A stretch of DNA of 64,000 nucleotides from an uncultured Bifidobacteriaceae bacterium (GCA_964406645.1 CAYOSM010000001.1:5564-69563), one strand, 5' to 3'; counted from the first letter of the stretch, positions 45,426 through 63,710 are shown. Program-made: numbers and translations. The notes: generated by a model from the sequence alone, not told the origin.

Positions 45426-45502
45426 GTTCGTCGGGCATCGCACACCGAGAGTCCGGATCATTCGCCTGCTGATTCGGGTCTCATCGATTTCAGCACCGTC
45501 GG

Positions 45503-48454
45503 CTACGAAGCCGCCTGGAACACCGAGCCCTGATGGCGCCACCAGTCTGCGAGCCATGGAAGCGCACCTGGCCGTTGCATCAGCACGAACCGGCGATCCG
45601 GTTCGAGGCGCCACGCCACGAATGCGATCCCCTGGCTACTCCAGCACGCGACGTCCCCAAGGATCACAGACGGATTGTCATCTCGATACCACGCCCCCAG
45701 GTGCGATCCCTTTTCGCAGGTTGTGCCACCCCAGCTACGGCGATCAGCACCCGTCACCTCACGGAACTCGGCATCCGCGAGCCTCTGCGTCCGAAACTCG
45801 GACATCACAGCGGATGTGGCCCCGTGCACGCACCGGACGCGGAGCTTCATCCAAGCGGTTGACCGCGGCGATGGCTTCGGAGCGGGCTGGCACTTCCACT
45901 CCGACCCGGTGATCCCCTGAGCAACCTCTCGTGACTGCTGGGCAAAGTCACGATGCTCGGCGGCCTTCGCCCGTGAGGCGACGATCCACCCGAAGCCGAC
46001 AGCCACCAACAGCGCCACAGCGACCGTCGCCGACATCGCATCGGAGCGCATTCTCGCCCCCGTTCGCTCCTGAGCCCGAACATCCAGCGGAAGAACCCTT
46101 CGTGCGGTGAGGCAGAGGAGGTGAGCGATGGCCGCGGCACACAGTGCCCATCCGGCGGTGGTCCCCGCCACATTTCGAATACCCCCGGCGACGATGGCGG
46201 GAGCGGCGAACGCGGCGATCGCCGCCAACGCCACGGTTCGGCGGTGCCACGGCGGAACTGGACGGGCAAACCCACGCCAGAGCCCATTCACGGAGGTAGC
46301 AATGCTGAAGATGATCTCCGATACCAGGCCAATAGCGACTGCAGCTACAAGATACGGCCAGAGGCGCAAGGCCGCGAGACCGAAAACCGATGCCGGATCA
46401 GTTGACGTCCAAAGAGGTCCGGCAACCGTCGTGATGTACGCGGCGAGTCCGCCCAGAAACCCCCAGGCGAGTATCCCTCGTAAGCTCGCGCCGAGTGCCC
46501 CTCCAAGAGCCGCCCTCGCGCGTTGACGCTCTTCACGACGCGCCCGTTCCGCCTGCTGACGTCGCTGATCCGCCTCCTGCTGGGCATCTCGGTGAAGAAG
46601 TCGGATGACGATGTCACGCGCCGGGCTTGGTGCGCTGCCCGAGGGCCGGGCAGCCGTCTGGAACCACGCGACGTCGCGCACCGCCCCATCACTTCGGGCG
46701 ATCTCCCCGTCCGCGGCGACGCGCTGACGGGCCTCGTCATCGAGCAGAAGATGAAGAATCTGCGCGCACATGGTGTTGCGTTGGGCAGCATCGAGATCAC
46801 GTGCGCCCTCAAGTCGCGTCGCGTGGCTTTGCAACTGTGCCTGTATCCAGTCCCAGTTACGCGCCCACTGCGCCTCGAGGGCGGCCCAGCCCTCGCGAGC
46901 CGCCGAACCATCGTCGTACAGGGTGAGCGCACCATGTTCGAGAATGCCCGCCGTGATCTCGGCCGCCCGGGCATCGCCGGACGCTCCGTTCGCCGCGAGT
47001 CGTCGAAGCCCACCCTCGGCGAGATCGACCCCGTCGAAGACCGGCTCCGTCTCGGGATCCATCGCGATGCGCAGACGGAGGAGCCGGTCGGTCGGTGTGC
47101 CCTCACCGGCCTGCAGAACCTCCAGCGCCCCGGGAAGACCGGCCGTTCTGAGGAAGTCGGCCAGTTGCCGATGCTGGCGACGATGCGCGGCGTCGTTGGC
47201 GACGACTCCGAGCGCCTCATCCCAGTGGTGTCCCATGACACCGGCGAGTCGCACCGGATCACGGTACTGAAGGATCTCGTCGCCGTCTGGCGCCGCAAAG
47301 CTGACGGGCATGATCGTGGTGGACGCCTCGGTCGGTGCTGTCCGACGAATACGGGGGGCGCCGCCCTCCATCCACTCGGTGACCTCATGGAGGCCCCATC
47401 GGTGCTCCGAACTACGGGTCGTCAGACCTCCACACAGGTCGCGCCAACGCCCCTCCTCGACCTCGTCGACCGGCACGTCGTTGGTCGCGAGGAACGCACC
47501 GATCACCTGCTCCTCGCGTGCCGTGCCATCGCTGGCCGACGGTGCGAGCGGATGCCGACCGGTCAACATCTCGATGATCATGATGCCCAGAGACCACCAG
47601 TCGAGCGCAGGACTGACCGCCCCGAATGCGGCCTCAGGCGCCGCGTAGAGGACCGTGCGCGACGCAGTCGCCGCGAAGACCTTGCTCTCAGCTCCCATTG
47701 ACCGAGAAAGACCGAAATCGGTAAGCACCAGATCGAACGTCGGTCGGAGAGAGCGAACCAAGACGTTCGCCGGTTTGAGGTCACGATGCGTGATGCGAAG
47801 TGAGTCGTCGTGGAGGTGAGCGAGGGCGGGGACGATCTCGTCCAGAATCGCGCGGACCCGCTCCTGGCTCAGCTTGGGCCCCTCGTGATCGATGAGGTCC
47901 CTCAGCGACCCATGCGCACAGAACTCGAGCACCTCGTACCAGCGGCCGTCCGACATGCCGCGGTCGATGACGTCGACGACGTGGGCACGATTCGCGGCGT
48001 CGAGCGTGTCGAGGACACCCTGCGGTGGAGGGGTGCGCTGGAAGCGATACACCTTGACGGCCACCTGGCGACCACTCGTACGGTGCTCTGCGACCAGCAC
48101 ATCGGCCTCCGCCCCCTGCGTGGGGATCTCTCTCAGGATCCGATAGTCGGCCCGCAACGCGGAGGGGAGGTTGACGATCGTGTGGAAGGCATCACCATCC
48201 ACTCCGTCACTCCCGACACCGCCGGTGGACGCATCAAGAGCGGTCGAATCAGGTGAGCGATCATCGGCGTGATCCAACCGCGTGCCGTCCGACGACGCGG
48301 CTGTCGTCCCCGGATCCAGCGTCGTCGAATCGGAGCCATCGGCCGAGCTCGTCGATCCGGCGGAGGGATCGAGAGTGGTCGAATCACCACCCGCGTCTCC
48401 ACCGTCGCCATCCAACCGGGTCAGATCCGGGTCACGCCGATCGTCGTCACTCAC
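45503..48454 (-). CDS. Membrane-anchored Ser/Thr protein kinase (Hanks type) with long helical middle, ~5 TM segments and Cys-containing C-terminal domain
   Basis: VAVKVY, HRDLKPANVLV, TDFGLS, YAAPE and WSLG motifs. N-terminal D/S/T-rich repeats (DSTTLDP x2, DSTALDA). TM-rich region ~670-830. Confidence 0.88.
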   Translation of the reverse strand: MSDDDRRDPDLTRLDGDGGDAGGDSTTLDPSAGSTSSADGSDSTTLDPGTTAASSDGTRLDHADDRSPDSTALDASTGGVGSDGVDGDAFHTIVNLPSALRADYRILREIPTQGAEADVLVAEHRTSGRQVAVKVYRFQRTPPPQGVLDTLDAANRAHVVDVIDRGMSDGRWYEVLEFCAHGSLRDLIDHEGPKLSQERVRAILDEIVPALAHLHDDSLRITHRDLKPANVLVRSLRPTFDLVLTDFGLSRSMGAESKVFAATASRTVLYAAPEAAFGAVSPALDWWSLGIMIIEMLTGRHPLAPSASDGTAREEQVIGAFLATNDVPVDEVEEGRWRDLCGGLTTRSSEHRWGLHEVTEWMEGGAPRIRRTAPTEASTTIMPVSFAAPDGDEILQYRDPVRLAGVMGHHWDEALGVVANDAAHRRQHRQLADFLRTAGLPGALEVLQAGEGTPTDRLLRLRIAMDPETEPVFDGVDLAEGGLRRLAANGASGDARAAEITAGILEHGALTLYDDGSAAREGWAALEAQWARNWDWIQAQLQSHATRLEGARDLDAAQRNTMCAQILHLLLDDEARQRVAADGEIARSDGAVRDVAWFQTAARPSGSAPSPARDIVIRLLHRDAQQEADQRRQQAERARREERQRARAALGGALGASLRGILAWGFLGGLAAYITTVAGPLWTSTDPASVFGLAALRLWPYLVAAVAIGLVSEIIFSIATSVNGLWRGFARPVPPWHRRTVALAAIAAFAAPAIVAGGIRNVAGTTAGWALCAAAIAHLLCLTARRVLPLDVRAQERTGARMRSDAMSATVAVALLVAVGFGWIVASRAKAAEHRDFAQQSREVAQGITGSEWKCQPAPKPSPRSTAWMKLRVRCVHGATSAVMSEFRTQRLADAEFREVTGADRRSWGGTTCEKGSHLGAWYRDDNPSVILGDVACWSSQGIAFVAWRLEPDRRFVLMQRPGALPWLADWWRHQGSVFQAAS

Positions 48455-49220
48455 CAGCCGCTCCTTCGAGATGAACCATCACCACTGTCACGTTGTCCGG
48501 AGCCCCCGCGCGCAGCGCTTCGTCGACGAGGATCCGGACGGCCTGCACATCCGCACCGGCGTCACGGACGATCTGCGCGATCTGAGCGCGGGACAGCGCC
48601 GCCTCGAGCCCGTCGCTGCAGACGAGAAGGCGGAGACCAGGCTCGGTCGGGCACCGGCCGACATGAGGCTGCGGCAGCACCGCGCGATCCGCGCCGCCGA
48701 CGACCTGGGTGACGACCGACGATCGCGCCTCCGGGTCGACTCCGGGTGGGCGCGGCGGATGATCGTCGATGCTGAGCTGAAACAGTTCGTCGGAACCGAG
48801 ATCGAAGACCGCCGAATCACCCACGTTCGCGTAGAGGGTGTCCTGAGGTGTGACGACCAGTGCCGCGATCGTGGTGGCCATCCCCGACGACTCCGGTTCG
48901 ATCGTCATCTGATCATGCAGGGCGTGGTGGGCGGAGACGATCGACTCGGCCAGCGCCGCGGTCGTCGAAGTAACGGCTCCGGATGCCATCGACGCCAGCG
49001 CATCTGCACTGGCGCGTTCGCCGAACGGGTGACCACCGGCGCCGTCGGCCACGGCGATGAATACAGGGTGACCCAACAGCAGTCGCCGTCTCAGGAGCAC
49101 GCCGTCGGGCACGAGCCATCCGGCGACGAGGGCTCGGTCCTGATTGCGAACGCGCCGCGCACCCCGGTGACTGAATGCGGTGATCTCAACGGTGGGCACG
49201 CGCCTACCGAGGTTCCTCAT
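48447..49220 (-). CDS. PP2C-family Ser/Thr phosphatase
   Basis: SHRGARRVRNQDR, AVADGAGGHPFGE, GMATTIAAL, NVGDSAV, CSDGL and DNVTVVMV motifs. Confidence 0.88.
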   Translation of the reverse strand: MRNLGRRVPTVEITAFSHRGARRVRNQDRALVAGWLVPDGVLLRRRLLLGHPVFIAVADGAGGHPFGERASADALASMASGAVTSTTAALAESIVSAHHALHDQMTIEPESSGMATTIAALVVTPQDTLYANVGDSAVFDLGSDELFQLSIDDHPPRPPGVDPEARSSVVTQVVGGADRAVLPQPHVGRCPTEPGLRLLVCSDGLEAALSRAQIAQIVRDAGADVQAVRILVDEALRAGAPDNVTVVMVHLEGAAGE

Positions 49221-49806
49221 CCGCCACTCCCACGGTGATCAGCTGGGCGGTCAGTGTGACCGTGCGTCCGAGACCGATGCGGTCACCGTTTCGGACCGCG
49301 GCGACGTCTGTGACGCGGATGTCGTTGACATAGGTGCCGTTCGTGGATCCCAGATCCCGAACGACCACCCGGCCACCCTCGATCGCAAGGGATGCGTGGC
49401 GTCGCGACACGCGATCGAGTGAGGCGAGTGCGGGTGTGTCGGAGGAATGCCTCCCCAGCACCCATGGACCGATTCCCGCCAGAACGAGGGTGACCAGCGG
49501 GCTGACCAGCCGTATCGTCTCGATGACTCCGACGACGGCGCTGTCCGATCCCTGGCGTCCCCCGCAGTACGGACAGGGCGCGCCTACCGGGATGTCGCTC
49601 ACCCCGCATCCTGGTGCCGTGCACGCCCAGCCGGACACGGCCGGGACGGGTGCCCCACGCGAAGAAGTTTCCGTGGTGTCCGGCGTCGCAACCGGCGCCG
49701 GAGTGGCAATCGGTGGCGCGGCCAGCAGATCCTTCCCGCAGGACGGACACCACACCTCCGATGACAGAGTGACCTCCGTCGCGCAGTAGGGACAGCGCGC
49801 GCTCAT
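49204..49806 (-). CDS. Zinc-ribbon + FHA domain protein
   Basis: N-terminal CPYCATE...CPSCG plus a second Cys cluster CTAPGCG...CPYCGG. FHA core VLGRHS...VSRRHASLAIEGGRVVVRDLGSTNGTYVN. Confidence 0.85.
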   Translation of the reverse strand: MSARCPYCATEVTLSSEVWCPSCGKDLLAAPPIATPAPVATPDTTETSSRGAPVPAVSGWACTAPGCGVSDIPVGAPCPYCGGRQGSDSAVVGVIETIRLVSPLVTLVLAGIGPWVLGRHSSDTPALASLDRVSRRHASLAIEGGRVVVRDLGSTNGTYVNDIRVTDVAAVRNGDRIGLGRTVTLTAQLITVGVADEEPR

Positions 49807-51656
49807 CCGAGGTCCACCTCGAAGGTCCGGCCAGTCGGTCGGATCGCACGCACGGCGATGGTACCGTCCCCATAGGACTCCCGCGCGAAAAGCGCCCGTG
49901 CAAGCGGGTTGACGAGGGCGTTCTCGACCACCGACGCCACGCCGCGGCCACCGTTCTCCAAGTTCGACAGCACGTACTGCTCAAGAGACGCACGCGCTGC
50001 AGGATCGATTGTCAGATTGGCGCCCAGCTCCCGCTCCACGCGCGAAACCACGTTCCGCAGCTGAAGATCAAGGATCTGACGTCCAACCTCGTCGGAGATG
50101 AAATCGAAAACCACGATGTTGTCACCGATCCGGTTGAGGAGCTCGGGACGGCCCAGCACACGTGTGAAGTGATCCTTGATCGCCGAGAGGATACTTTCCT
50201 CCACATGCTCGGAGCTGTCACCCCGCGTCACGTTCGGCGTCCGTGTCCCGTCGCCGGATTCGACCCATATCCCCAGGTTCGACGTGAACACGATCACCGC
50301 TTCGGAGAAGAACACCGTCGCCCCACGCCCGTCGGTGAGCCGACCGTCCTCCAGGATCTGGAGGAACTTGTCCAGGATGCGGCCGTCGGCCTTCTCGATC
50401 TCATCGAACAGCACGAGGCTGAACGGTCTCTGACGAATCGCGTTGGTCAGCTCACCGCCGGCGTCATGCCCCACATAGCCGGGCGGGGCGCCGATGAGTC
50501 GTGCCGCGGTGTGCTCCTGCGAGAACTCGCTCATGTCGAAACGGATGTACGCCCGCTCGTCCCCGAAGATCATCCGTGTGAGCTGCTTCGCGAGCTCCGT
50601 CTTGCCCACACCCGTGGGTCCTGCGAAGAACAGCACACCGCGGGGTCGTGTGCCGTACGGGGACCCTTGGGCACCGGTGAGGCCTGTGGCCGACCGGACC
50701 ATGATGTCGAGTGACTTGCGGACTGCGTCTCGCTGGCCGAGCACCTGTCGGGTGAGAGTTTCCTCACCGTTGCGGAGTCTGGCCCGTAGATGATCAGTTC
50801 GCCAGGGATTGTCGAGAATCCCCACCCGATACGCGCGAGCCGCGTCGTCGATGCGATCCAGGCCGAGGTCGGCGTCGTCGGCGAGTAGAACGATCGAGAA
50901 CAGCGACGAGAGTGTCATGCCTTCCGTCTGTTGGGTGAACCTCGCCACCGCCTGACCGCGGTCACTCTCGTCGGCTTCGTTCCATCCACTGACCCGCCGC
51001 AGAAGCATCGCGACGAGCCGCTCCCGTTCGCCGTAGTCCGGGAGGGGAAGCGCGATCGAACGGACACGATCCGTGTGATCGAGCAGCCATGTGGGAATCT
51101 GACGATCGCGGTCGACCGTCCAGAACACCGGGTTGAAGAGACCCACGGATCGCCCGTCACCCGCCGGCGCCGCCGTCGCCGAGAGAGCCATCCGTTCGGC
51201 CAGGCGGAAGAAGGTGAGCGCCACCTCGTCGTAGTGCCCGTCCAGATCGGCAAGGCGACTGGTCCGTTCGACCACCACTGCGGCCCGACGCGTGGTGTTG
51301 ACGATCCGTACGAGATCCTCTCCGAAGGCCGCCAGCGTCTGCGGCATGGGCTGTGAGAGGTCACGCCCGAGGATCTCGCGCACCACACCGGGCGCCACGT
51401 CGCACTGGTCATGAACACGGAGTCCGGTGGTCGGATCGAAACAGAAGAGAACCTCGAAGCCCTGATCCACCAGGCCCATCCAAAGAGCGCACGGGAGATC
51501 GCGAACCGGCACGAACTGGTCCTCGCCGGACGGCAGCAGGTACCGGTCGAACACGTTGCCCTCGAGGACGAACTGCGACGCGATACCGAGGGATCCCATG
51601 ACCTCCCGATACCACGCTGGTGCATCGTCCGGAACCCGTGCGCGGACCGCGGTCAT
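49803..51656 (-). CDS. AAA+ ATPase, ClpA/ClpB D2-like module with ~300-aa unknown N-terminal domain
   Basis: Start MTAVRARV at 51656 (ATGA overlap). VLFFAGPTGVGKTELAK, GAPPGYVGH, SLVLFDEIEKA, LQILEDGRLTD, FTSNLG, and the D2-small-like PELLNRIGDNIVVF. Confidence 0.85.
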   Translation of the reverse strand: MTAVRARVPDDAPAWYREVMGSLGIASQFVLEGNVFDRYLLPSGEDQFVPVRDLPCALWMGLVDQGFEVLFCFDPTTGLRVHDQCDVAPGVVREILGRDLSQPMPQTLAAFGEDLVRIVNTTRRAAVVVERTSRLADLDGHYDEVALTFFRLAERMALSATAAPAGDGRSVGLFNPVFWTVDRDRQIPTWLLDHTDRVRSIALPLPDYGERERLVAMLLRRVSGWNEADESDRGQAVARFTQQTEGMTLSSLFSIVLLADDADLGLDRIDDAARAYRVGILDNPWRTDHLRARLRNGEETLTRQVLGQRDAVRKSLDIMVRSATGLTGAQGSPYGTRPRGVLFFAGPTGVGKTELAKQLTRMIFGDERAYIRFDMSEFSQEHTAARLIGAPPGYVGHDAGGELTNAIRQRPFSLVLFDEIEKADGRILDKFLQILEDGRLTDGRGATVFFSEAVIVFTSNLGIWVESGDGTRTPNVTRGDSSEHVEESILSAIKDHFTRVLGRPELLNRIGDNIVVFDFISDEVGRQILDLQLRNVVSRVERELGANLTIDPAARASLEQYVLSNLENGGRGVASVVENALVNPLARALFARESYGDGTIAVRAIRPTGRTFEVDLG

Positions 51657-52873
51657 CGCTCCTCCAGCGTTCGTGTCCGCTGTGCACGCTCGCGCCGACG
51701 TCGACCAGCGGTGGGCAGATTGTCGATGACCTGCACAGGGTGAACGCCGGCCTCGACGGAATGCGTGACTGCCGCCGAGATCCCCGCCCGCCCGAGCCCC
51801 GCCAGAATCGCGGGCATCGACTCGCACCACGCACCCTCGACCTCGCGATCCCGGAGTTCCTGCGATTCGTCCGCGACACCGCGAACCACGTTGAATCGGA
51901 CTGAACCATCACGCGCCTGGAAACGAACACGGACGGCATATCCCGACCACGCGGGACGCACGACATCCGCGAAGCCGTCCTCGGCCAGCATGGTGTCGAA
52001 CTCGGGACCGCACTCATAGCCGAGATCGGCCAGCACACCCTCCAGCGCATCGATCGTATGATCGCGCGCCGCCAGACGACAGCCCTCACGCTCGGCGTCT
52101 TCCAGAGCGGCGACCTGGGCCGGCGGCAGCGGCGTTTCCGGCGCCCATGCCGCGAGCACCGCCCGTGCGGCCTGACATGCGCTGCCCGGAAGACCGGCCA
52201 AGCGCTCCTCCCAGGCCGCGTGCTGCACCGCTGCCGCCCGCCTGCCCGCAGCCGCGTCGTTGGCCGACCGGACCCGCGACCGGATGAGGTCGACGAGAAG
52301 CGCCGCCGTGTCTCTTTCAACGGCAAGCACACGCTCCGCATCGGCGTGGATCGCGTCCACCACCTCGCCGTCCACATCCGCGTCCAATCGATCGATGATG
52401 CGTTTGACCGTTTCGGTCAGCTCCGTCCGGTGATCGTCCTCGACCGATTCTCGGACGGCCAGTCGCTCCTCCATGCGCTCAAGCGAGCGGTCCCGGAGAT
52501 CCTCGCGCCCCTCCACCGGTACCAGCGCGAGAACCGACGCGGCGAAAGCGGCGCCACGACAGCGGCGGGTGGCCGCAGCGAGATCCTCCTCGCATGCGCG
52601 GAGGTCGCCCTCGGCGCGCTGCAGCTCATCCTCGAACTCGCCGGAGTCCTTCCTGGTCGAAAGCGCACCCGGTCGACGGATATCGCCGAGTTCGCGGCCG
52701 AAGCGCGCACGGGCATCACTTAGCGCACCAGCGAAGGCCTGCATCCGGGCCTCTACGTTCGCGCGGCGGGCCACAAGCTCTGCGCGCCGCCGCTGAGCCG
52801 CCAGGACAGCGGGATCGACCGTGTAGCTCACCGACTTGGGACCGGACACGGACTCCTCCTTCAGAGTGCCCAC
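51653..52873 (-). CDS. Hypothetical coiled-coil protein
   Basis: 406 aa; Ala/Arg/Glu-rich helical N-terminal two thirds, mixed C-terminal ~130 aa; coupled at both ends. Confidence 0.6.
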   Translation of the reverse strand: MGTLKEESVSGPKSVSYTVDPAVLAAQRRRAELVARRANVEARMQAFAGALSDARARFGRELGDIRRPGALSTRKDSGEFEDELQRAEGDLRACEEDLAAATRRCRGAAFAASVLALVPVEGREDLRDRSLERMEERLAVRESVEDDHRTELTETVKRIIDRLDADVDGEVVDAIHADAERVLAVERDTAALLVDLIRSRVRSANDAAAGRRAAAVQHAAWEERLAGLPGSACQAARAVLAAWAPETPLPPAQVAALEDAEREGCRLAARDHTIDALEGVLADLGYECGPEFDTMLAEDGFADVVRPAWSGYAVRVRFQARDGSVRFNVVRGVADESQELRDREVEGAWCESMPAILAGLGRAGISAAVTHSVEAGVHPVQVIDNLPTAGRRRRERAQRTRTLEER

Positions 52874-53538
52874 GAGGGTTGTTCGAATGTCACGCCTGCC
52901 TGCCTGAGCCCTTGCTCCATCCGCTCCAGGTCACCGGGTCGAGGAATCCCGATCATCCAGAACGATTCGTCCACCGCAACCTGGAGATGAGGACGGTCGA
53001 CTTCGCGATCGATGAACGGCTCATATCGCACACGCCCCAGATCCGTGAGCGGTGTGATGACCTGATTGTCCGATCCGCACCAGATACGCCGAGTCGGGCG
53101 ACCAGCGACATACGGACCACAGACGACGGCGTCGATCATGCCAATGACACGCGCATACCGACGACGCAGACCGCTCAGTGAATGTGAGGTGAACACCAGT
53201 ACATCAAGGTCGGATCGTCCCCGACGTGACCGAAGCTCCTCGATTCCGGACAGCAACTCGTGAAGTGCATCGGGCTGCTCGAACGGTTCTCCTCCGCTGA
53301 TCGTGATCCCGGTCAGCGGGGAGACCCACATCAGTTCGTCGATCCAGCCGATGACCGTCGTAACCTCGACCATGCGGTGTTCCGCGTGACTCCATGTGTC
53401 GCGGCTGGCGCATCCGGCACAGCCGACGGTGCATCCCTGGAACCAGACGCCGGCCCGCGTGCCCGGCCCCAGAGCGGTCACCGGATGGTGCAAACGACTC
53501 AGATTGATCCGGTGCGCGCGCTCGCCTGGCACCATCAC
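52861..53538 (-). CDS. NrdG/QueE-like radical-SAM activase-type protein (4Fe-4S single-cluster domain)
   Basis: GVWFQGCTVGCAGCASRDTW (CxxxCxxC followed by W, as in anaerobic RNR activases) and ITISGGEPFEQP. No glycyl-radical enzyme or queuosine genes nearby. Confidence 0.75.
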   Translation of the reverse strand: MMVPGERAHRINLSRLHHPVTALGPGTRAGVWFQGCTVGCAGCASRDTWSHAEHRMVEVTTVIGWIDELMWVSPLTGITISGGEPFEQPDALHELLSGIEELRSRRGRSDLDVLVFTSHSLSGLRRRYARVIGMIDAVVCGPYVAGRPTRRIWCGSDNQVITPLTDLGRVRYEPFIDREVDRPHLQVAVDESFWMIGIPRPGDLERMEQGLRQAGVTFEQPSWAL

Positions 53539-53972: not shown

Positions 53973-54021
53973 GAATCAGCCCCTTCTAGTTATGATGATC
54001 GCTCCAAGTATCCCATCGGGC

Positions 54022-55139: not shown

Positions 55140-55145
55140 CGCAGT

Positions 55146-56096: not shown

Positions 56097-56371
56097 CAGA
56101 ATCCGTCCCGGTCCATCTGGCGGAGCACGGTCAACCGTTCGTTGATGAAGATGATGAGGGCTCTGCTCCCCTCGGTGTGTTCAGCGAGCGCCTCCTGTGC
56201 CTGCCTCCACGCCCTCTTGAACTCGTCGGCCGCATTGCCCCCGTAGCGCGCACTGAGGTGGTCATAGCGGTCACCGACACGTCTCAATGCGTTCTCGGCC
56301 GCCGCGCGCTGCTCTTCGAGTACCGCGAGATAGCGTTCGAGGGCCCTGATGATGAACGTGACATCAGCCAC
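56096..56371 (-). CDS. Small helical protein, possibly WXG100 (ESAT-6)-like
   Basis: 91 aa; predicted helix-turn-helix with central YGGNAADEFKRAW; size and position next to the FtsK-like ATPase fit WXG100, but there is no canonical WxG. Confidence 0.4.
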   Translation of the reverse strand: MADVTFIIRALERYLAVLEEQRAAAENALRRVGDRYDHLSARYGGNAADEFKRAWRQAQEALAEHTEGSRALIIFINERLTVLRQMDRDGF

Positions 56372-56636
56372 CGTTCAGATACCTCGCCAGATGCCGCAGG
56401 CGGCTGTGGATGAACGAGTGGAACTTCGGGGCGTCGACTGTGAGATAGGTCGTCAGATTCTCTTCAAAGGGAGATCGCAACCGTTGGAACTCCTTGTACG
56501 CCCGGTCGTCCCAGACGCGCTTAACCTCGGCCTCCGCATCCTCCAGCGCCGAGTTCATCACTCGGAGCGACCTGTGGAACTCGTCCAGTGCGCGACAGAA
56601 CTCCTTCATCGAGATATCGGTCTGATCGAGGTTCAT
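56364..56636 (-). CDS. Small helical protein, possibly WXG100 (ESAT-6)-like
   Basis: 90 aa; central VWDDRAYKEF (W-x-D in place of W-x-G); immediately downstream of the FtsK-like ATPase (ATGA overlap). Confidence 0.4.
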   Translation of the reverse strand: MNLDQTDISMKEFCRALDEFHRSLRVMNSALEDAEAEVKRVWDDRAYKEFQRLRSPFEENLTTYLTVDAPKFHSFIHSRLRHLARYLNGG

Positions 56637-59506
56637 GCGAGGTCCCGGACGAACGCCGCGATCTGATCCTGAAGGAGTCCGGATCTGTCGCCGGCGGGAA
56701 GACGCTGATCCTCAACGGTGAAGGGGATGCAGATCTGGGTACGGTTGATGCCGGCATCGGCCAGCAGCGCCTTGACCGGCTCGGCGTCGGCACCCTGGAC
56801 GGTCCGCGCATCCGCGGTGCCCAGCACCGTGAACGAGTCGTCCTCACCGCATTGAAGAACCATCTTGTGATCGAAGGCACTCATGTGACGGTTGCCACCC
56901 TGCGTCTGCAAGACGCGCGTCAGTCCGACAACGCTCCTGCCCACCACGACGACATGGACACCTACGGTCGGCCCACGGTCGAGTACGTCTCCCAACTGAC
57001 GTCCCAGATCGCTGGGTTCGTCACCGTAGGCATCCCGGACGTGTTCGAGCGCGGCGATGTACTCGGGCTCCAGGATGACGAGCATCACGCTTCGGGCATC
57101 CAGCTGTGCCTGCGGATCGAGGTCACGGCGCTCATCGATGAGCCCCACCAACCTGCCGAGCGTGTCCGCAAGTCCCGAAGGTTGGACCACATGGGCATCA
57201 TGGCCCAGATCGCGCGACACCCCAGGGAGGATGTCGGTGAACAGACCGGTCCAGTCGCCCGGACGCGAAGCCACGACCGTGATCATCTCCAGTCCCCCGG
57301 CCGGCATCGAGAGCGCGACCGACGTGAGTCCGGCAGCGCAGGCACCGAAGACGATCTCGAGATCCTGACCGACGATGAGGAGGTTTCCGCCCCTCCGCCG
57401 GGAGAGGGTGGCGATCGCCTGTCCGTGGACACTCAGGCCCTTCCCGAGCAGCAGGGGAACGGGGCGGTCCGCATCGTGCCATTGGGCGATTCCGAGCCCT
57501 CCACGGTCGGGAACGCTCTCGGCCAACTCGCGACGGCTCTGCGCATCGAGCCCACGCAGCGCGGCGATCCTCGGAAGCGCGGCGTTGGCGCGGAGGAACG
57601 GTTGGCAGTCACCGACGAACACGATCGGCCGTCGGTCCTCGTAGCCTCCAGCGTCCGCCTTGGACCGAATGTCGGATATGCACGCCGACAGCTCCGCATC
57701 GTCAAGCATGGCAATTCGGCCTGCCCGGTTGGCCGCATCCGCTCCGGCACGGGAGTTGACGACGGCCTTGCCGGGTGAATCACAGTGGCGCTTGATGAGA
57801 TCGCGCCCCTGCTTTCCGAACTCGACGAGTGACGCCTGCTCAGATTGACCCAGCGCGACGAGGTTGTGCATGTTCTCCATCATCGCGCTACTCCCGACCA
57901 TTCCCTGGGCGACGAAGCGCTGCGAGACAAGGAACAGGTGAACACCGGCCGCCCGCCCCTGCGCGGCGATCTTCTTAAGAGCATTCGAGGCGCGCTCCGA
58001 CTGCTCGATGGTGGATCCGAACAGTTCGTGGTACTCGTCGACGATGATGACGAGCCGGGGAAGCCGACGATCGTCAACCGCAGCTCGAAGGGCCGAGTAC
58101 TGGCGGACGTTGTCCTCGACACCGAGATCGTCGAACAGCCCGAAGCGGCGGTCAAGCTCCTCGGCCGCGTCCAGAAGGACGCTCAGCATCATCTCGGGTT
58201 GCGTCTTCAGCGACACCAATCGGGCGTGCGGGAGATCGCGGTAGATGCGGAACTCCACTCCCTGTTTGCCGTCGATGAGGTAGAAGGCGACCTCATCCGG
58301 TCCGTATCGCGTTGCCGCGCCGGTGATGAATGAGTGCAGAGCGATCGACTTGCCCATGCCGGGCATCCCGGCCTGGATCGTGTGCGCATAGACCTGTCGG
58401 TCCATGACCCCTGCCGGCCCCGGAGCCACCACCTCGCCGTAGGTGAGTTCGAGAAGCTGCGACGGGCCCGCCTGACCGATGGGCACGGTCACCGCCTCGA
58501 GACTCGAATGCTGCCACCAGCGACTCGGTTCGGTCTGGTTGATGGACGCCCACGTGACACGCGGTTGAACGGGCGTGAACCTCGAGAGAACACCGAGCCG
58601 CTCCCGTGCCGTCGTGAGGTCGCCACCCAAGGAGTCGAGCCGGAGTTCGCAGGCGAGTCCGCCCCACTCGACGCGCGTACGATCACCGGCGATGTCGACC
58701 GTTGTCGTCTCGCCGAGGTCGAGGCCCCCGGCATCACGGGTGTCGACATCGAGATCGTGATGGACGACGACGAGCGCACCGGCGGGAGCGAACCGGACCA
58801 CACGTCGCAATGCGTCCAGCGCCCGTCTGTCACACCCATTCGGGATGTCAGCCGCGACGACGAGGTTGAACCGCTCGCTCATGCGAAGCTCGTCGGGAAG
58901 ATCCGCCAGTGGTACGTCCGGGTAGAGATCGGTGACCCGCTGGCAATACGCAGCCACCTGGGCGAGCTGCTCGGCGATGTCGCCGCTCGCCGCTACGACG
59001 CCCGGGATGTCCGCCGAGAGGGGAAAGCTCCGCCCCATGCCGATCGGATCGATGAGGTGCACGCGCACCTGATGAGGCATAGAGAGCGCCACGCGCAGGG
59101 CGATGGACTGGAGGAACTCCTTGGCCCGGGCCGCCGCGTCCCCGCCGCGCGTCCGGATGACGATCGGACGGTCGGACCCGACGAACGGCACAAGCGCGGG
59201 AGCCACGAACTCGCCCTGATCCAGGAGGTCTCCGATCCGGATCCACCGTGGTGGGGCGGCGTGATCGGGTTCCCATGTCGACCATGCGGCATGGCTCCAC
59301 GGACGCCGCGCAGCGACTTCATCGTCACCGACAGCCGCATCGATGGCCACACGGTTGCGGCTGAGTTCATCAACCACATGGCGGTCGGCGACAGTCGCGG
59401 CGGCAAGACCGGCACCGATCTGGCCGCGAAGCTCCGCCCGGGCGGCATCGAGTTGCTGACGGATCGTGTCAAGCTGTGCGCGGGCACTGTCGATGGCGGC
59501 GCTCAC
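56633..59506 (-). CDS. FtsK/SpoIIIE-family ATPase, EccC/EssC-like, soluble (no TM seen)
   Basis: Walker A QAGMPGMGKSIAL; Walker B LPRLVIIVDEYHELF; AAQGRAAGVHLFLVSQRF. Downstream ATPase-like modules lack a P-loop (degenerate). N-terminal coiled coil. Confidence 0.82.
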   Translation of the reverse strand: MSAAIDSARAQLDTIRQQLDAARAELRGQIGAGLAAATVADRHVVDELSRNRVAIDAAVGDDEVAARRPWSHAAWSTWEPDHAAPPRWIRIGDLLDQGEFVAPALVPFVGSDRPIVIRTRGGDAAARAKEFLQSIALRVALSMPHQVRVHLIDPIGMGRSFPLSADIPGVVAASGDIAEQLAQVAAYCQRVTDLYPDVPLADLPDELRMSERFNLVVAADIPNGCDRRALDALRRVVRFAPAGALVVVHHDLDVDTRDAGGLDLGETTTVDIAGDRTRVEWGGLACELRLDSLGGDLTTARERLGVLSRFTPVQPRVTWASINQTEPSRWWQHSSLEAVTVPIGQAGPSQLLELTYGEVVAPGPAGVMDRQVYAHTIQAGMPGMGKSIALHSFITGAATRYGPDEVAFYLIDGKQGVEFRIYRDLPHARLVSLKTQPEMMLSVLLDAAEELDRRFGLFDDLGVEDNVRQYSALRAAVDDRRLPRLVIIVDEYHELFGSTIEQSERASNALKKIAAQGRAAGVHLFLVSQRFVAQGMVGSSAMMENMHNLVALGQSEQASLVEFGKQGRDLIKRHCDSPGKAVVNSRAGADAANRAGRIAMLDDAELSACISDIRSKADAGGYEDRRPIVFVGDCQPFLRANAALPRIAALRGLDAQSRRELAESVPDRGGLGIAQWHDADRPVPLLLGKGLSVHGQAIATLSRRRGGNLLIVGQDLEIVFGACAAGLTSVALSMPAGGLEMITVVASRPGDWTGLFTDILPGVSRDLGHDAHVVQPSGLADTLGRLVGLIDERRDLDPQAQLDARSVMLVILEPEYIAALEHVRDAYGDEPSDLGRQLGDVLDRGPTVGVHVVVVGRSVVGLTRVLQTQGGNRHMSAFDHKMVLQCGEDDSFTVLGTADARTVQGADAEPVKALLADAGINRTQICIPFTVEDQRLPAGDRSGLLQDQIAAFVRDLA

Positions 59507-59829
59507 AGAGCCACCACGAGAATGAGGATCAGGACGATCACAGCGATGGCGATACCGACGCCGATCATCACATTGCGACGCTGAGCCTCGAGGCGGGCGA
59601 TCTCGGCTTCCTGCGCCTCCAGGCGCTGAGCGGCATCAGCGATCTGCGTGTTCGCCTCACGCGCGGACGACAGGGCACGCTCGAGCGTAACGGAGGCGGC
59701 CGCCGGCTCACCATCGAACTGACGGGTGTCCGCATCGCCGAAGCCGGCGAGTTCCGCGCGCAGATCGGCGATCCGCGCCCTGTCCAGGTGAAGGTCGGCT
59801 CTCTCTGAGAGCAGGCTGTCAATCATCAT
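59503..59829 (-). CDS. Small coiled-coil protein with C-terminal TM anchor
   Basis: 108 aa; C-terminal VMIGVGIAIAVIVLILILVVAL. Confidence 0.55.
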   Translation of the reverse strand: MMIDSLLSERADLHLDRARIADLRAELAGFGDADTRQFDGEPAAASVTLERALSSAREANTQIADAAQRLEAQEAEIARLEAQRRNVMIGVGIAIAVIVLILILVVAL

Positions 59830-59862
59830 TCGTCTCCGATCCGTCGGTGGACAGCGCAGGAA

Positions 59863-60672
59863 TCAGTCGCCGACGACATCCGTGATCTTCTTGGCATCGG
59901 TCTCCATGAACACGTCGGCTCCCGATGGCGCCAGGAGGTCCTCCCACAGCCGTTCCACCGCCGGTCCGCGGTCCGTCGTGATGCGTCGGTCGCGTCCGAC
60001 CCCGACGAGCCAGATCCGGAACCCGGAGAGGTCAGGCGGCTTGAACGTCGACCGGATCCTCTTGAGGGTCTGCTGGTAGCGCTGCTCATTCTCGATCGGG
60101 GTCCTCGTCAGCGCGATCCCCTTGTCGAGATCGACGATGAGGCCGTTAGTGACGAACACCATGCGTGCCTCGAGGTCGTTCTGCCGTGAACGTTGCACAA
60201 CGCGCTTGTGCTCGTTGGCAGTCTGCCGGAACACCCCGAGAAGGTCGGATTCACAGGGTTGTCCCGTGGGCCGCCGTGTGACGACCGGGAGCAACTCCTG
60301 GAGCGCCGCGTCCCGCGCGTCGATGGCGTTCGAGATCCGGACCGTCGCGTTGTTACCCCTGGCCGCGAAGTTGACCTCTTCGAAGTCGATGTTCTGCGAC
60401 GCCAGCGCACGCACGGTTCCGACCTCCAGGCGACCGCCGTTGACCGCCGCCGCCGTCGCCGCCATCTGAAGGCCGACCTTCAGGTCCTCCTTGTCCTTCG
60501 GCTCGTCCATGTCACAACTGACGTCCGCGACGAAGTAGACGACCTGCTTGCCGTTGCCCGTGTCGCCCGGAAGGGCGAGTCCCGTCTCGGGATCCTCCTG
60601 GCTCGCACCGGCGCAGCCCGCTCCGGCCACGAGCAAGCCCACAAACAGCAATGACACCGCGATCCGCCTCAT
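59863..60672 (-). CDS. Lipoprotein with vWA-like domain
   Basis: Lipobox LLVAGAGC; MIDAS-like VVYFVADVSCDM (DxSxD); overall alpha/beta alternation. Weak call. Confidence 0.45.
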   Translation of the reverse strand: MRRIAVSLLFVGLLVAGAGCAGASQEDPETGLALPGDTGNGKQVVYFVADVSCDMDEPKDKEDLKVGLQMAATAAAVNGGRLEVGTVRALASQNIDFEEVNFAARGNNATVRISNAIDARDAALQELLPVVTRRPTGQPCESDLLGVFRQTANEHKRVVQRSRQNDLEARMVFVTNGLIVDLDKGIALTRTPIENEQRYQQTLKRIRSTFKPPDLSGFRIWLVGVGRDRRITTDRGPAVERLWEDLLAPSGADVFMETDAKKITDVVGD

Positions 60673-61580
60673 ATCAAGACTCCCTCTCTGATTCGCGTGG
60701 CCTCCGCGGCCAGCAGTTTGTCGATCCTCTGAATACGATCGGCAGTGGATGGGTGTGTGTCGAGCAGACGCTCGGTGGACGGCACCAGATCCTCACGTGT
60801 GAGAGCCGCGCGATGCGCGAGCAGTTCGCGCAGAGGACGGCCATACCCGCACGCGACAGCAAAGGCGTCCGCCATGAACTCCCGGCGCCGGGAGGAGATC
60901 CCCCACAGGAAACGGAACGGCCCGGTGACGCTGGCGGTCAACCAGAGGATGAACCTCCCGACGAGCCTCCCGACAGCGCCCAGCCGGGCGATGGCCAGCA
61001 CGACCCGATCGACCAGATGAACGGGCATCAGGTACCAGTAGACCGCCCCGGTGAGAAACTGATCTCGGTGCACGTGGTGGCCGACCTCGTGGGCGACCAT
61101 GGCCTGGACGTATGTCGGTGGAAAGAACAGTGCTCCCCCGAGGACATCCGCTGAGACCGCGACGGTGCTGTCGCTGGAGTACGTCGCGTTGAACCACATC
61201 TTCGCGACCCGGAGACGGAATACATCGGGGCGTATACCACCGGCCGTGCACACGGGCCCGAGCGCACGCTGAAGCTGTGTGAGTTCGACGCCCGTGGGCG
61301 CCCGATTGGAGGCGACCTCCGCCTGAATGGCGTGCGCCAGGGACGGAATGAGAAAAACGAGGCCGAGCAGAACCCAGATCACCACAACCGCCCAGAGCAC
61401 CCCCCATCCGAACTGCCATTGGAGCAGAGCCCAGACGGGCAGGAGCACTGTGGCTCCGGCGGCAGCGGCGGCGGCGATGGCGAGACAGCGGCCGATCGAC
61501 GGTGTAGCGGTCAGCGGGCGACTGACGGTGTAGCCGACTCTGGGATCATCACCCTCCGCCCACGGGACGGGAGCCGTCAT
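60669..61580 (-). CDS. M48-family (HtpX/Ste24-like) membrane zinc metallopeptidase
   Basis: HExxH MVAHEVGHHVHRD; downstream EFMADAFAV and THPSTADRIQRI; N-terminal TM helices. Confidence 0.8.
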   Translation of the reverse strand: MTAPVPWAEGDDPRVGYTVSRPLTATPSIGRCLAIAAAAAAGATVLLPVWALLQWQFGWGVLWAVVVIWVLLGLVFLIPSLAHAIQAEVASNRAPTGVELTQLQRALGPVCTAGGIRPDVFRLRVAKMWFNATYSSDSTVAVSADVLGGALFFPPTYVQAMVAHEVGHHVHRDQFLTGAVYWYLMPVHLVDRVVLAIARLGAVGRLVGRFILWLTASVTGPFRFLWGISSRRREFMADAFAVACGYGRPLRELLAHRAALTREDLVPSTERLLDTHPSTADRIQRIDKLLAAEATRIREGVLI

Positions 61581-62530
61581 GCCACGTCCTTCTGGGGAAC
61601 GTTGGTCTTAATGGCGTCATCGATCTCTCGGTACTTCTCGGCGATCAACTCCCGGTCGTCGGGACCGTCGCCCGCGACCTGATTGACGGCGTGCGTGAAG
61701 TATTCACGAGCCTTCCCGAAGTAGTTCACCTCGAGCTCGTCGAGATCACGAACCAGACCATCGATCTCGGCAGTCTCCTGAGGAATGGTGATGTCGAGTT
61801 CGCTCTTCGCCGCCGCCACCGCGTTCGCCCAGGCACGTTCCCGCACGCGGAAGTCCCGTCGTGGTCCCCCGCGGATGACGCCGTCCGAGATACCAAAGAT
61901 GATCGCTGTGGCGGCCCCTGCCAGAAGCGCCCCTCCGAGTCTCTCCATCGTGGTGTGTGCGTCGTCGATCAGCGCTGCCATGAGCACAGCGGCGACGATC
62001 GCCGCCACCGCCAGCACGCCGAGCCGTCCCCTCTCACGAATCCCGAGCCCGCGCGTGGCGAACAGCCCACCGAGTCCGAATGCGATCGCGATGGCTCCAG
62101 CAACCGCACCGACACCCCAGGAGAGTCCGAGAAGTCGCGCGAAGCCGACGGTGGCTCCGACCGCTGCGCCGCACGCCAGGACCGCGACGGTTCGCCCATA
62201 TGCGGGGCCGTGGGCAGCGTCGTATTCCGTCGGGGCCTCGGGCGCCGTTCCCAGTTGTTCGATCCGTTCCTTAAGAGCGTCGGTCCGGACCTCGAGCGCG
62301 TCGGCCCGAGAGAGCAGCCGTTCACGCAGCCCGTCCACAAGATCGTCGATGACGTGGATTGTCTGGAGCGTACGCGCGGCGACACTCTGGATCGTCCGTC
62401 TATCTCCCTCCGTCGGAATACGGCGATCATCGACGATCTCGCTGCGAAGACCGGAAACCGACGCCTGTACCAGGGTCTCGACGCGAGCGCTCTGCTCGCC
62501 CAGCAGCATGCCGTGCGAATCGTCAGGCAT
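61577..62530 (-). CDS. Membrane protein (helical N-domain + Gly/Ala-rich TM bundle)
   Basis: Start MPDDSHGM at 62530 (8-nt overlap with the upstream gene); TM-rich core GRTVAVLACGAAVGATVGFA...; no motif recognised. Confidence 0.55.
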   Translation of the reverse strand: MPDDSHGMLLGEQSARVETLVQASVSGLRSEIVDDRRIPTEGDRRTIQSVAARTLQTIHVIDDLVDGLRERLLSRADALEVRTDALKERIEQLGTAPEAPTEYDAAHGPAYGRTVAVLACGAAVGATVGFARLLGLSWGVGAVAGAIAIAFGLGGLFATRGLGIRERGRLGVLAVAAIVAAVLMAALIDDAHTTMERLGGALLAGAATAIIFGISDGVIRGGPRRDFRVRERAWANAVAAAKSELDITIPQETAEIDGLVRDLDELEVNYFGKAREYFTHAVNQVAGDGPDDRELIAEKYREIDDAIKTNVPQKDVA

Positions 62531-63710
62531 CGGCCGAACCGTTCGCTGCGACCATTCCCTGAGCGCCCGGCACCTCGCCGCCCGTGCGCATGCGCTCCAG
62601 GAGAGCTTTGGCCTCGTGCTGGTGCTCCTCCACGAGCCTCTTGACGTCAGCCTCGGCGTCGGACACCTGGGCAATGAGTGCCTTGACAGACTGAGCCAAA
62701 TCGTCACGCTCGTTCACGTAGTTGTTCTGGGCGGTGTGCCCTCTTCCCTCGCTTGTCAGGCACTCGTTCGCAATCATCACGACGACGTTCGGCACCGTGG
62801 AGATGGCGCCGTGATACGCCTGCGTGATGGTGCCCAGATGCAGGAGCGCCTTGCTCCGAGCGGCCGTGGCGTCGTGGAACGCACGGTCAGCTGCAACCGC
62901 CTCCTTCTGCGCGTTCTCACACGCATGCTTGGCCTCTCGGTACTCCGCCGTTCGTGCGTGATTGATCCCGGCCACCGCCGCCGTGAGGGTGGCGAGCCCG
63001 GAGATCCCACCGAGGGCGACCAGGACCCAGAATTTGAAGCTGTCACGGTCGATGTTCAATCCGGCGACCCGAAAATCCTGAGCGCGGAGAAACGTCAGTG
63101 ACACCAAGATCAGAACGATCAGAAGACCGGCGGCCACCGCGAGGAACATGAGCGGCCGTCTCTGTCGTGCGTTCTCACCCGTCGCGATCCAGCGTTCTCC
63201 GAGCCAGCCATAGAGCCAGTGAATGACCCAGGTGAGGAGGCCCGAGATGAGCACGACCAGCCCCAGGATGGCCCACTCTGGGAAGTCAAGGTTCTGAAAA
63301 GCAATGAAAAGAAGAAAGCACTCCAGGAGGAATGAGAAGCCGAGCAGGATGATCTGCCCAAGCAGGGCCGAGTGCGGTGGCGGACCGAGCGTCCTCAGGC
63401 GATCACTCGCGCTGATCTCAATCGACCGCGCGGACTCAAGGTCGTGCTGGGTTCGAATTGCCGCTCCGGCCTCCGTGATGACCGTCGTCACGGAGTTATG
63501 AAGCGCCTCCGCTCCGTCCTGAGCCAGGTCGCGGGCATTGGCCTCACCCTCCTGGAACACGGACTGCACATACGGATGCGCGGGGAGTGCATGAACGGTC
63601 CCCTCGTCCAGCGGTCCTCGCTCCTTCGCCTCCTCCAGCCAGCCATTGATGCCAACCCGGACGATCTCCAGACTCGGCGTCACACGGACGCCGCGCTCAC
63701 CACGTGCCAT
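62523..63710 (-). CDS. Membrane protein, first gene of the long operon
   Basis: 395 aa; AGGAGG (complement of 63716-63721) 5 nt upstream of the ATG; 4-5 TM helices in the centre; helical C-terminus. The ~290 nt upstream are non-coding. Confidence 0.6.
   Translation of the reverse strand: MARGERGVRVTPSLEIVRVGINGWLEEAKERGPLDEGTVHALPAHPYVQSVFQEGEANARDLAQDGAEALHNSVTTVITEAGAAIRTQHDLESARSIEISASDRLRTLGPPPHSALLGQIILLGFSFLLECFLLFIAFQNLDFPEWAILGLVVLISGLLTWVIHWLYGWLGERWIATGENARQRRPLMFLAVAAGLLIVLILVSLTFLRAQDFRVAGLNIDRDSFKFWVLVALGGISGLATLTAAVAGINHARTAEYREAKHACENAQKEAVAADRAFHDATAARSKALLHLGTITQAYHGAISTVPNVVVMIANECLTSEGRGHTAQNNYVNERDDLAQSVKALIAQVSDAEADVKRLVEEHQHEAKALLERMRTGGEVPGAQGMVAANGSADA

Follow-up and report, generated by a model that had tools for sequence, protein, structure and literature searches.

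At positions 45503-63710 of a 64,000-nucleotide stretch of DNA from an uncultured Bifidobacteriaceae bacterium (GCA_964406645.1, CAYOSM010000001.1:5564-69563; the whole stretch is referred to here as the window), 18 successive genes on the minus strand (g1-g18) form an array that is probably a junction of independent cassettes, co-oriented and probably co-transcribed within a horizontally acquired conflict island, and not an ancestral 18-gene machine. The array comprises block A (g1-g4), block B (g5-g10) and block C (g13-g18), together with g11 and g12. An earlier note on the window had presented the 18 genes as a single system. The array is real and compact, as claimed there, but a synteny search found its sub-blocks apart and never together. 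Two uncharacterised, widely distributed cassettes, blocks B and C, emerge from the one locus.

Distribution of the blocks

Relatives of block C were sought in a scan in which each GTDB species was represented by a single genome; at least 422 of these genomes carry a relative of g13, a radical S-adenosylmethionine (radical-SAM) protein. The 80 best loci were kept and their six-frame open reading frames (ORFs) were searched with all 18 window proteins. A homologue of g1-g12 within 10 kb of block C was found in none of these 80 genomic loci. For block B, a metagenome scan with the family alignment of the ATPase g6 gave 270 relatives, and the 80 loci kept from them contain no true block A or block C. 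The closest relatives are also single-block loci, as L007 (block C) lacks block B and L009 (block B) lacks block C. Relatives of g1-g4, g11 and g12 were present neither in the 176 block B and block C loci examined nor in the PLSDB plasmids. Since blocks B and C occur apart, and since those loci contain no relative of g1-g4, g11 or g12, we read the array as a lineage-specific junction of modules. The blocks could be functionally linked in this one organism.

Two loci had appeared to bring parts of the array together and were rejected. At L138, which seemed to unite block B with radical-SAM and AAA+ genes, Pfam identifies the AAA+ protein as a housekeeping cyanobacterial ClpB (Clp_N and two AAA modules); glyoxalase and porin genes intervene before the Fer4_12 gene, and the co-occurrence was dismissed as coincidence. 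The M48 gene upstream of the ATPase at L146 encodes a Ste24-type CAAX protease and lies amid unrelated metabolic genes.

Organisation of the array

The 18 co-oriented ORFs have a coding-type G+C content at third codon positions (GC3), and a separate gene caller, applied to several metagenome contigs that encode identical proteins, predicts the same 18 genes, in agreement with the earlier description of real, tightly packed genes. The products of g1-g18 are, in order, 395, 317, 303, 269, 107, 957, 90, 91, 316, 205, 147, 145, 224, 398, 617, 200, 257 and 983 amino acids (aa) long. With the gene caller's starts, 13 of the 17 junctions are overlaps of 1-17 nt, and the remaining four are gaps, at g4/g5 (36 nt), g9/g10 (66 nt), g11/g12 (49 nt) and g13/g14 (11 nt). 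Overlap is therefore the rule, as the earlier note stated, but its figures of 14 junctions and a largest gap of 49 nt differ from these because of the start codons chosen for g10 and g14. A Shine-Dalgarno sequence (AGGAGG, 63716-63721, minus strand) lies 5 nt 5' of the ATG of g1, preceded by non-coding DNA of at least 290 nt in the window and of ~450 nt to the nearest gene on contig L093, and both features had been read correctly before. Within the array, terminator-like and promoter-like sites do not exceed their frequency in shuffled sequence, and an Rfam search of the array gave zero family matches. Judged from these signals, transcription of the 18 genes as one array is plausible. Tight start/stop coupling in a high-GC island is nevertheless not proof of one functional system, a caution that applies to annotation in general.

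One junction counts against a modular origin and could be functional, namely that of g12 and g13, where the stop codon of one gene overlaps the start of the next by 1 nt at a block boundary, though three of the four gaps do sit at module boundaries. This overlap is among the arguments for one integrated 18-gene machine, in which g1-g5 and g12 would form a membrane conduit and protease (analogues of EccB/D/E and MycP), g6-g11 would be the motor and its substrates, and block C would be a phospho-regulated switch or maturation module. Such a machine would also account for the common orientation of all 18 genes and the overlaps at most of their junctions, for internal terminator signals that do not exceed chance, and for the lack of a plausible channel in block B by itself. 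The NCBIfam matches to ClpV1 and TagH point the same way, since FHA proteins, kinases and ClpV-type proteins are known parts of type VII and type VI secretion systems. Against this, the blocks were never together in the 80 genomic block C loci, the 80 metagenomic block B loci or the closest relatives, the sole apparent co-occurrence (L138) consists of a housekeeping ClpB and a Fer4_12 gene, and relatives of g1-g4 are missing from the surroundings of both blocks. We therefore consider a single machine improbable and retain the junction of separate cassettes as the reading of the array.

Distribution and architecture of block C

Hundreds of relatives of g13 share ~50% identity with it. In Mycolicibacterium rutilum, in Kitasatospora and on a conjugative element from a metagenome, genes for a ~400-aa protein, an AAA+ protein, a radical-SAM protein, an FHA protein, a PP2C phosphatase and a kinase stand together, with no counterpart of the upstream half of the window array. 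At least eight phyla are represented among the 80 best loci, whose hosts include Actinomycetota, Beta-, Alpha- and Gammaproteobacteria, Acidobacteriota, Gemmatimonadota, Verrucomicrobiota, Nitrospirota and Cyanobacteriota. Block C is also carried by megaplasmids of Rhizobium and Caballeronia and by a 44-kb plasmid of the Clostridia (Bacillota), and its closest relative, L007, lies beside genes of a conjugative type IV secretion system. A search of the literature found no description of a cassette joining radical-SAM, ClpB-like AAA+, FHA, PP2C and Ser/Thr kinase proteins.

In the 80 loci the radical-SAM gene almost always adjoins g15 and usually also g14 and the kinase gene; g14 is present in 69 loci. 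The g14-g15-g13 trio is always contiguous, gene order is shuffled between lineages, and we take the trio to be the functional core. The invariant core of the whole block consists of g14, g15, g13 and a Ser/Thr kinase module linked to a Zn-ribbon.

Architectures were counted over 58 full-length loci. The set g14, AAA+, radical-SAM, Zn-ribbon-FHA (ZnR-FHA), PP2C and kinase is found in 16 of the 58, and the same set without PP2C in 30, including a version with four genes in Betaproteobacteria, whose kinase carries the Zn-ribbon at its N-terminus. Five of the full-length loci, and six loci in all (L084 10654-16977, L071, L073, L086, L087 and L091), encode a ~2100-aa fusion of the kinase with DUF4011, an SF1 helicase and REase_MTES_1575; they belong to Burkholderia, Bradyrhizobium, Pseudomonas and Ramlibacter. 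The helicase-nuclease part of this fusion matches PDC-S37 (1e-143), Hhe (3e-64) and MkoA (4e-47) in PADLOC, and on an Aristaeella plasmid (L096 2-5245) a separate helicase-nuclease protein of the same kind is encoded beside the cassette. The DUF4011 and radical-SAM gene pair of Pseudomonas aeruginosa, which we take to be PA2725-PA2727, is presumably a proteobacterial block C. Some block C kinases carry a PG_binding_1 domain or transmembrane (TM) sensors.

Accessory genes differ between lineages. Cassettes of Actinomadura/Spirillospora (L039, L044, L047, L049, L055, L057, L058, L061 and L066) have an extra gene for a ~160-aa DUF4282 protein directly upstream, while those of Undibacterium have one for a different protein of ~191 aa in the same position; these are lineage-specific additions to the cassette.

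Proteins of block C

The core protein g13 (224 aa; 52861-53535) is a radical-SAM protein of the glycyl-radical-activase type (Fer4_12, E 7.5e-21). Residues C35, C39 and C42 (CX3CX2C) and the GGEP motif at 81-84 are invariant in the family. Its NCBIfam scores are 74 bits against a cut-off of 126 for NrdG and 52 bits against 232 for PFLA. The AlphaFold2 (AF2) model has a predicted local distance difference test (pLDDT) score of 92, and its top Foldseek match is PflA (E 3e-5 to 2e-4), followed by QueE and viperin-like proteins. A conserved C-terminal extension of ~60 aa has no structural match.

The second core protein, g14 (398 aa; 51653-52849), has a variable, helical and fast-evolving N-terminal part and a conserved C-terminal alpha/beta domain of ~120 aa. 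Near-invariant residues are G277-Y278, T286, D334, E338, W341-C342, G356 and G368, and all 65 sequences compared have C342. The protein is matched by no model in Pfam, NCBIfam or PADLOC, and its AF2 model (pLDDT 74) has no significant Foldseek match in the PDB. The family is large, a search of 1.84 billion representatives at E<=1e-10 giving 1293 clusters at 50% identity. The sequence SGYAVR in the window protein, identical to the glycyl-radical motif of PFL/GrcA, was considered as such a motif and the reading was rejected, as its glycine (G303) is found in only 16 of 65 family members.

The third core protein, g15 (617 aa; 49803-51656), is a two-module AAA+ protein (AAA_2, E 3.9e-46, with ClpB_D2-small). 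The best NCBIfam matches, ClpB (8.5e-75; 253 bits against a cut-off of 1232) and ClpV1 (1.4e-59), are both below cut-off. The C-terminal module is a D2 of the ClpB/ClpV type with Walker A and B motifs, a GAPPGYVG pore loop and a D2-small domain. The N-terminal ~290 aa are conserved in the family and have no P-loop, motifs resembling an AAA+ lid and a weak match to the Vps4 lid; we read this module as a putative degenerate D1.

The remaining proteins constitute a phospho-signalling set. A double Zn-ribbon is joined in g16 (200 aa; 49204-49806) to an FHA domain (E 5.7e-16), the reader of phosphothreonine. The Zn-ribbon module (window 49500-49806) is fused to FHA in Actinomycetota and stands at the kinase N-terminus in Betaproteobacteria (L021, L023, L026, L045 and L060), and because it changes partner in this way it is suggested to be the docking module for the conserved core. 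The product of g17 (257 aa; 48447-49220) is a PP2C Ser/Thr phosphatase (PP2C_2, E 4.7e-14). The last protein, g18 (983 aa; 45503-48454), is a Ser/Thr kinase (Pkinase, E 1.6e-34) followed by a helical region, 4-5 TM helices and an extracytoplasmic tail of ~160 aa (hydropathy), and is predicted to be active from its motifs VAVK, HRDLKPAN, DFG and APE. Its assignment to StpK7/MSMEG_1200, with a link to a BREX-like island, was rejected, the NCBIfam match being generic kinase similarity.

Proposed role of block C

From the gene content, modularity, distribution, motifs and folds described above, we infer an order of signalling, a substrate for the radical-SAM enzyme and a biological output. The membrane kinase would sense an envelope cue and phosphorylate a threonine, for which T286 of g14 is a candidate. 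The ZnR-FHA protein would read the phosphothreonine and the PP2C phosphatase would reset the switch. In its set state the switch would gate the ClpB-D2-type unfoldase on g14, and the unfoldase would expose the conserved Gly-Tyr/Cys loops of g14, from which the radical-SAM enzyme would then abstract hydrogen. The output would most likely be conflict or defence; the fusion of the kinase to Hhe/PDC-S37-like helicase-nucleases in Proteobacteria hints at such a role.

Several observations weigh against this scheme. The role of g14 as the radical-SAM substrate is proposed on two grounds, its strict co-occurrence and its conserved Gly and Cys residues, and from the modelled fold the chemistry of g13 could alternatively be directed at a small molecule, in a QueE-like or viperin-like manner. 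The 129 flanking ORFs of 48 genomes are mostly housekeeping genes with no defence enrichment, ~5 of the 129 matching PADLOC models. Gene order around block C is kept within the genera Actinomadura and Undibacterium, which suggests vertical inheritance in both; in Actinomadura in particular the cassette looks vertically inherited. Related DUF4011 and radical-SAM genes are core in every P. aeruginosa isolate, flanking the main defence hotspot cDHS1, as reported by Johnson et al. (PMC10250203). Vertical inheritance and core status in P. aeruginosa fit physiological signalling as well as they fit defence.

The same observations, with the PG_binding_1 domain or TM sensors of some kinases, are what would be expected if block C were a physiological module for stress or envelope signalling and protein quality, its place in this island being incidental. 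This is possible, though in our view not likely, since the block is spread patchily over at least eight phyla, on plasmids and on a conjugative element, is repeatedly fused or adjacent to helicase-nucleases of the Hhe/PDC-S37 type, and has a shuffled gene order and a fast-evolving N-terminal part in g14. In its widest form, the conflict reading would make block C a new phylum-spanning conflict or immune class, in which a kinase switch, acting together with FHA and PP2C or without them, would allow a ClpB-type unfoldase to present g14 to the radical-SAM enzyme, with exchangeable effectors, a helicase-nuclease in Proteobacteria and Clostridia and, here, a minimal type-VII-like exporter recruited into the same operon. 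We put this forward very tentatively and regard it as doubtful.

Block C sets an activase-type radical-SAM protein beside an unfoldase and eukaryote-like phospho-signalling, in organisms that have none of the common glycyl radical enzymes. Its chemistry might show protein radicals in a new use and could also explain the 'core' DUF4011/radical-SAM genes at the main defence hotspot of P. aeruginosa. If the conflict reading in its widest form is true, protein-radical chemistry would be an immune or signalling output in aerobes.

Proteins of block B

The central protein of block B is g6 (957 aa; 56633-59506), an EccC/EssC-like FtsK/SpoIIIE ATPase with an N-terminal coiled coil and three P-loop domains, as identified with Pfam, NCBIfam and hhalign. 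The Pfam match is to FtsK_SpoIIIE (E 7.6e-32), and the top NCBIfam match is EccCa (3.5e-25; 89 bits against a cut-off of 509), with EssC and EccCb ranked next, all far below cut-off. In the family alignment, Walker A (GMPGMGKS) and Walker B (DEY) are conserved in the middle P-loop domain only; the middle and C-terminal domains align with an hhalign probability of 94.6%. Hydropathy gives no hydrophobic segment in the first 700 residues and no TM helices. Upstream in the window, g5 (107 aa; 59503-59826) encodes a coiled coil with a C-terminal TM anchor (hydropathy); its family is present in 26-30 block B loci, either upstream or downstream of the ATPase gene.

Two small WXG100-like helical hairpins follow, whose affinity to WXG100 proteins is weak but consistent. 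In g7 (90 aa; 56364-56636) the family alignment shows W-x-D at the turn; the top matches of its profile in the PDB are Staphylococcus aureus EsxA (E 3.5e-3) and ESAT-6-like proteins, and a relative encoded beside a related ATPase reaches Pfam WXG100. In g8 (91 aa; 56096-56371), which itself matches Pfam WXG100 below the cut-off (E 1.1e-3), Y-x-G-x-A-A-x-x-F is invariant across the family alignment and the PDB matches of the profile are headed by HP0062 (1.4e-3), followed by EsxB and ESAT-6-like proteins.

The product of g9 (316 aa; 55146-56096) is a Cys-rich coiled coil, a conserved member of block B whose family is found in 44 loci. The g8 and g9 families have in common a C-terminal tail, ER(L/I)xxLxxxDR (window 56096-56140 and 55146-55190), which may be an export or recognition signal for the ATPase. 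The last member, g10 (205 aa, ~145 aa in relatives; 54462-55079), has no recognised fold, and its family is conserved in 33-34 block B loci irrespective of the toxin carried.

Distribution and proposed role of block B

Few full-length relatives of g6 emerged from a word-indexed protein search; their genes stand with those for a small TM coiled coil, 90-aa and 91-aa proteins, a coiled coil and a small protein, without block C. In the metagenomic loci the full set of g6, g7, g8, g9, g10 and g5 is present in ~45-50 of 80, and these are the sole conserved families there. The same six genes are found on the Deinococcus actinosclerus plasmid CP029776, where they are flanked by insertion sequence (IS) elements and helicase genes, and the hosts of the cassette include Actinomycetota, Deinococcus and cyanobacteria. 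Some relatives (L098-L101, L111 and L121) encode extra proteins in which an N-terminal g8-like WXG domain is fused to an AHH nuclease, GIY-YIG or GNAT domain.

Individual loci show further variation. In L009 (12333-19237) the cassette is followed by genes for a vWA protein, for a Tubulin_2 protein of 1026 aa and for a 691-aa protein without assignment, and an APH-type kinase and a pentapeptide-repeat protein are encoded upstream. The contig of L138 is marked as cyanobacterial by nearby RuBisCO and RuBisCO-activase genes; the ATPase ORF (8451-10859) begins with a fragment associated with DDE_Tnp_1, which suggests that it was disrupted by or fused to a transposase remnant. A remoter ATPase subfamily (L011, L150-L176) has proteins of ~1300-1400 aa at 25-28% identity, with a single WXG100 gene and genes for ~214-aa and ~78-aa proteins upstream in place of g7-g10, and a Ser/Thr kinase gene near in two loci.

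Block B is proposed to be a minimal type-VII-like export cassette. The g6 ATPase would probably be held at the membrane by the tail-anchored coiled coil g5, and would recognise and export g9, the Cys-rich coiled coil, together with the two WXG100-like proteins g7 and g8. Several points count against export. The WXG100 assignments of g7 and g8 rest on E values of ~1e-3, the copy in the window has no toxin-domain fusion, and block B has a single TM protein, with no homologues of EccB/D/E, EssA/B or EsaA detected, which leaves passage across the membrane unexplained.

The same six genes might instead be a DNA-sensing or DNA-pumping module of the FtsK/HerA type, for defence or transfer, with the WXG-like nuclease fusions as intracellular effectors of abortive infection. 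An ATPase without TM helices would suit such a module, as would the PADLOC domain matches to SspH, mad8 and HerA. No obvious immunity gene follows the AHH and GIY-YIG fusions, the next gene belonging to the conserved g10 family, and the cassette occurs in diderm lineages, Deinococcus and cyanobacteria, in which no type VII system is known. By contrast, EccCa, EssC and EccCb all outscore FtsK for g6, whose three-domain plan is that of EccC, and two WXG100-like proteins are obligatory companions of the cassette. The fusions combine a trafficking domain with a variable C-terminal toxin, an arrangement typical of secreted polymorphic toxins (LXG). A DNA module is accordingly unlikely, and export is the interpretation we prefer. 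The literature contains, as far as a search could find, no description of an EccC-like cassette without TM helices in its ATPase, and block B offers a minimal model for the recognition and movement of WXG100-type substrates.

Orphan genes

The first two genes of block A encode polytopic membrane proteins. Hydropathy places ~4 TM helices of g1 (395 aa; 62523-63710) between soluble helical N- and C-terminal parts, and the orphan g2 (317 aa; 61577-62530), also with ~4 TM helices, has a similar layout. Searches with g1 gave zero matches in Pfam, NCBIfam, PADLOC, the PDB or plasmids. The two were considered as paralogues, which was dropped as no relatedness was detectable on comparison, and g2 as an EccD, which was dropped at 18 bits against a cut-off of 95. 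They are followed by g3 (303 aa; 60669-61580), a membrane-anchored M48 zinc metallopeptidase with the motif HEVGH (Pfam Peptidase_M48, E 9e-13; TM segments by hydropathy), and g4 (269 aa; 59863-60672), an exported protein or probable lipoprotein with a signal peptide that ends in AGC. A tblastn search of plasmids with g1, g3 and g4 found nothing.

Between blocks B and C lie g11 (147 aa; 54022-54465), an orphan soluble protein for which family searches were empty, and g12 (145 aa; 53535-53972), an orphan with an N-terminal TM anchor (hydropathy), neither of which has relatives in the other loci. In the reading preferred here, g1-g4, g11 and g12 are lineage-specific additions which, judged by their adjacency, may contribute membrane and protease functions to the local arrangement, peculiar to this organism. 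The domains listed in the earlier note were borne out by Pfam and NCBIfam profile searches of the ORFs and its membrane calls by the hydropathy pattern. The exception is g4, which it had called vWA-like; this was abandoned, as Pfam, NCBIfam and PDB sequence searches were all empty.

The surrounding genomic island

Near 12 kb in the window, GC drops from ~0.71 to 0.61-0.67 and GC3 from ~0.9 to ~0.75, and the array lies in the 12-64 kb part. On composition and gene content this part is a block of acquired DNA, at least 52 kb long and running to the window end, and a conflict island. Three TIR-STAND-TPR proteins are encoded on the plus strand (27901-30813, 31994-35185 and 41040-44114), each with TIR_2 and either NPHP3_N or AAA_16 followed by TPR repeats, an architecture like that of Avs/bNACHT proteins. 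Also present are genes for a HerA/TrwB-like P-loop ATPase (837 aa; 24758-27271, plus strand; Pfam) and a TrkA_N and RyR protein (943 aa; 36991-39822, minus strand; Pfam), and several neighbouring ORFs of 400-740 aa match no Pfam family. The conflict context of the array is assigned because of the TIR-STAND-TPR and HerA-like neighbours and a GC3 below that of the core genome. The TIR island recorded in the earlier note is thus real; the IS relic that it placed beside the array (44100-45500) is not confirmed, as it found no match in plasmid DNA.

Comparison with known systems

The array had been said to match no named system, and this stands. PADLOC v2 gave no full-length component set (Dodola, PDC-M37, Mokosh, MADS, PD-T4-6 and SspFGH), with matches confined to kinase, P-loop and AAA+ domains and zero matches for g13, g14, g16, g17, g1-g4, g7 and g10-g12, and the NCBIfam family cut-offs were not reached.

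A close parallel to block C is the threonine-phosphorylation pathway of the P. aeruginosa H1 type VI secretion system (H1-T6SS), which consists of PpkA, PppA and Fha1, with ClpV1. Block C likewise joins a TM Ser/Thr kinase, a PP2C phosphatase, an FHA protein and a ClpB/ClpV-type AAA+ protein in one locus. Unlike in H1-T6SS, no TssB/C, Hcp or VgrG domains are found in the window array or the block C loci, the AAA+ protein has a dead D1 and no Clp_N, the radical-SAM protein and g14 are obligatory partners, and proteobacterial block C lacks FHA and PP2C and carries the Zn-ribbon on the kinase. The TerY-P triad combines a TerY vWA protein with a PP2C and a Ser/Thr kinase, but vWA was not detected in any of the 18 window proteins.

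At the level of single proteins, g13 resembles the activases PflA and NrdG in its CX3CX2C motif, GGE SAM motif, small partial-barrel fold and best sequence and structure matches. It differs in falling below every NCBIfam cut-off, in its additional C-terminal domain of ~60 aa and in its constant partners, the AAA+ protein and g14. A gene of the glycyl-radical-enzyme type (NrdD or PflB) was not seen near the g13 relatives in the 80 loci; the block C hosts Streptomyces, Kitasatospora and Actinomadura are known as aerobes. Compared with ClpB/Hsp104, g15 keeps only D2 intact, with no Clp_N, no M-domain and an N-terminal module devoid of a P-loop. Its D2 also has domain-level matches to Dodola DolB and PDC-M37B (1e-28 and 6e-17), which extend over ~120 residues only, and the partners DolA and PDC-M37A are absent. 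The proteobacterial block C kinases share DUF4011, SF1 helicase and REase_MTES_1575 with Hhe/PDC-S37 and with Mokosh MkoA. By contrast, the window cassette has no helicase-nuclease, its kinase ending in TM helices and an extracytoplasmic domain, and the Hhe/PDC-S37/MkoA systems themselves have no radical-SAM protein, AAA+ protein or g14.

Block B resembles type VII secretion systems (T7SSs) in its multi-P-loop FtsK/SpoIIIE ATPase, with one catalytic domain, and, as far as the weak WXG100 matches show, in the two hairpins of ~90 aa encoded beside it. Some relatives, though not the copy in the window, also encode proteins that, like the LXG toxins of T7SSb, pair an N-terminal WXG-like domain with variable nuclease or acetyltransferase C-termini. 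In contrast to the ATPase of ESX/T7SSa, that of the window begins with a coiled coil and has no N-terminal TM helices; no Pfam or NCBIfam match to EccB, EccD, EccE or MycP was found, and the protease of the window is an M48 metallopeptidase and not a subtilisin. The T7SSb components EssA, EssB, EsaA and EsaB/YukD were not detected, and the ATPase has no FHA domain, the sole FHA being in the separate g16 of block C. Block B further departs from type VII systems in its turn motifs (YxG and WxD, not WXG), in consisting of six genes with one tail-anchored TM protein, and in occurring also in Deinococcus and cyanobacteria.

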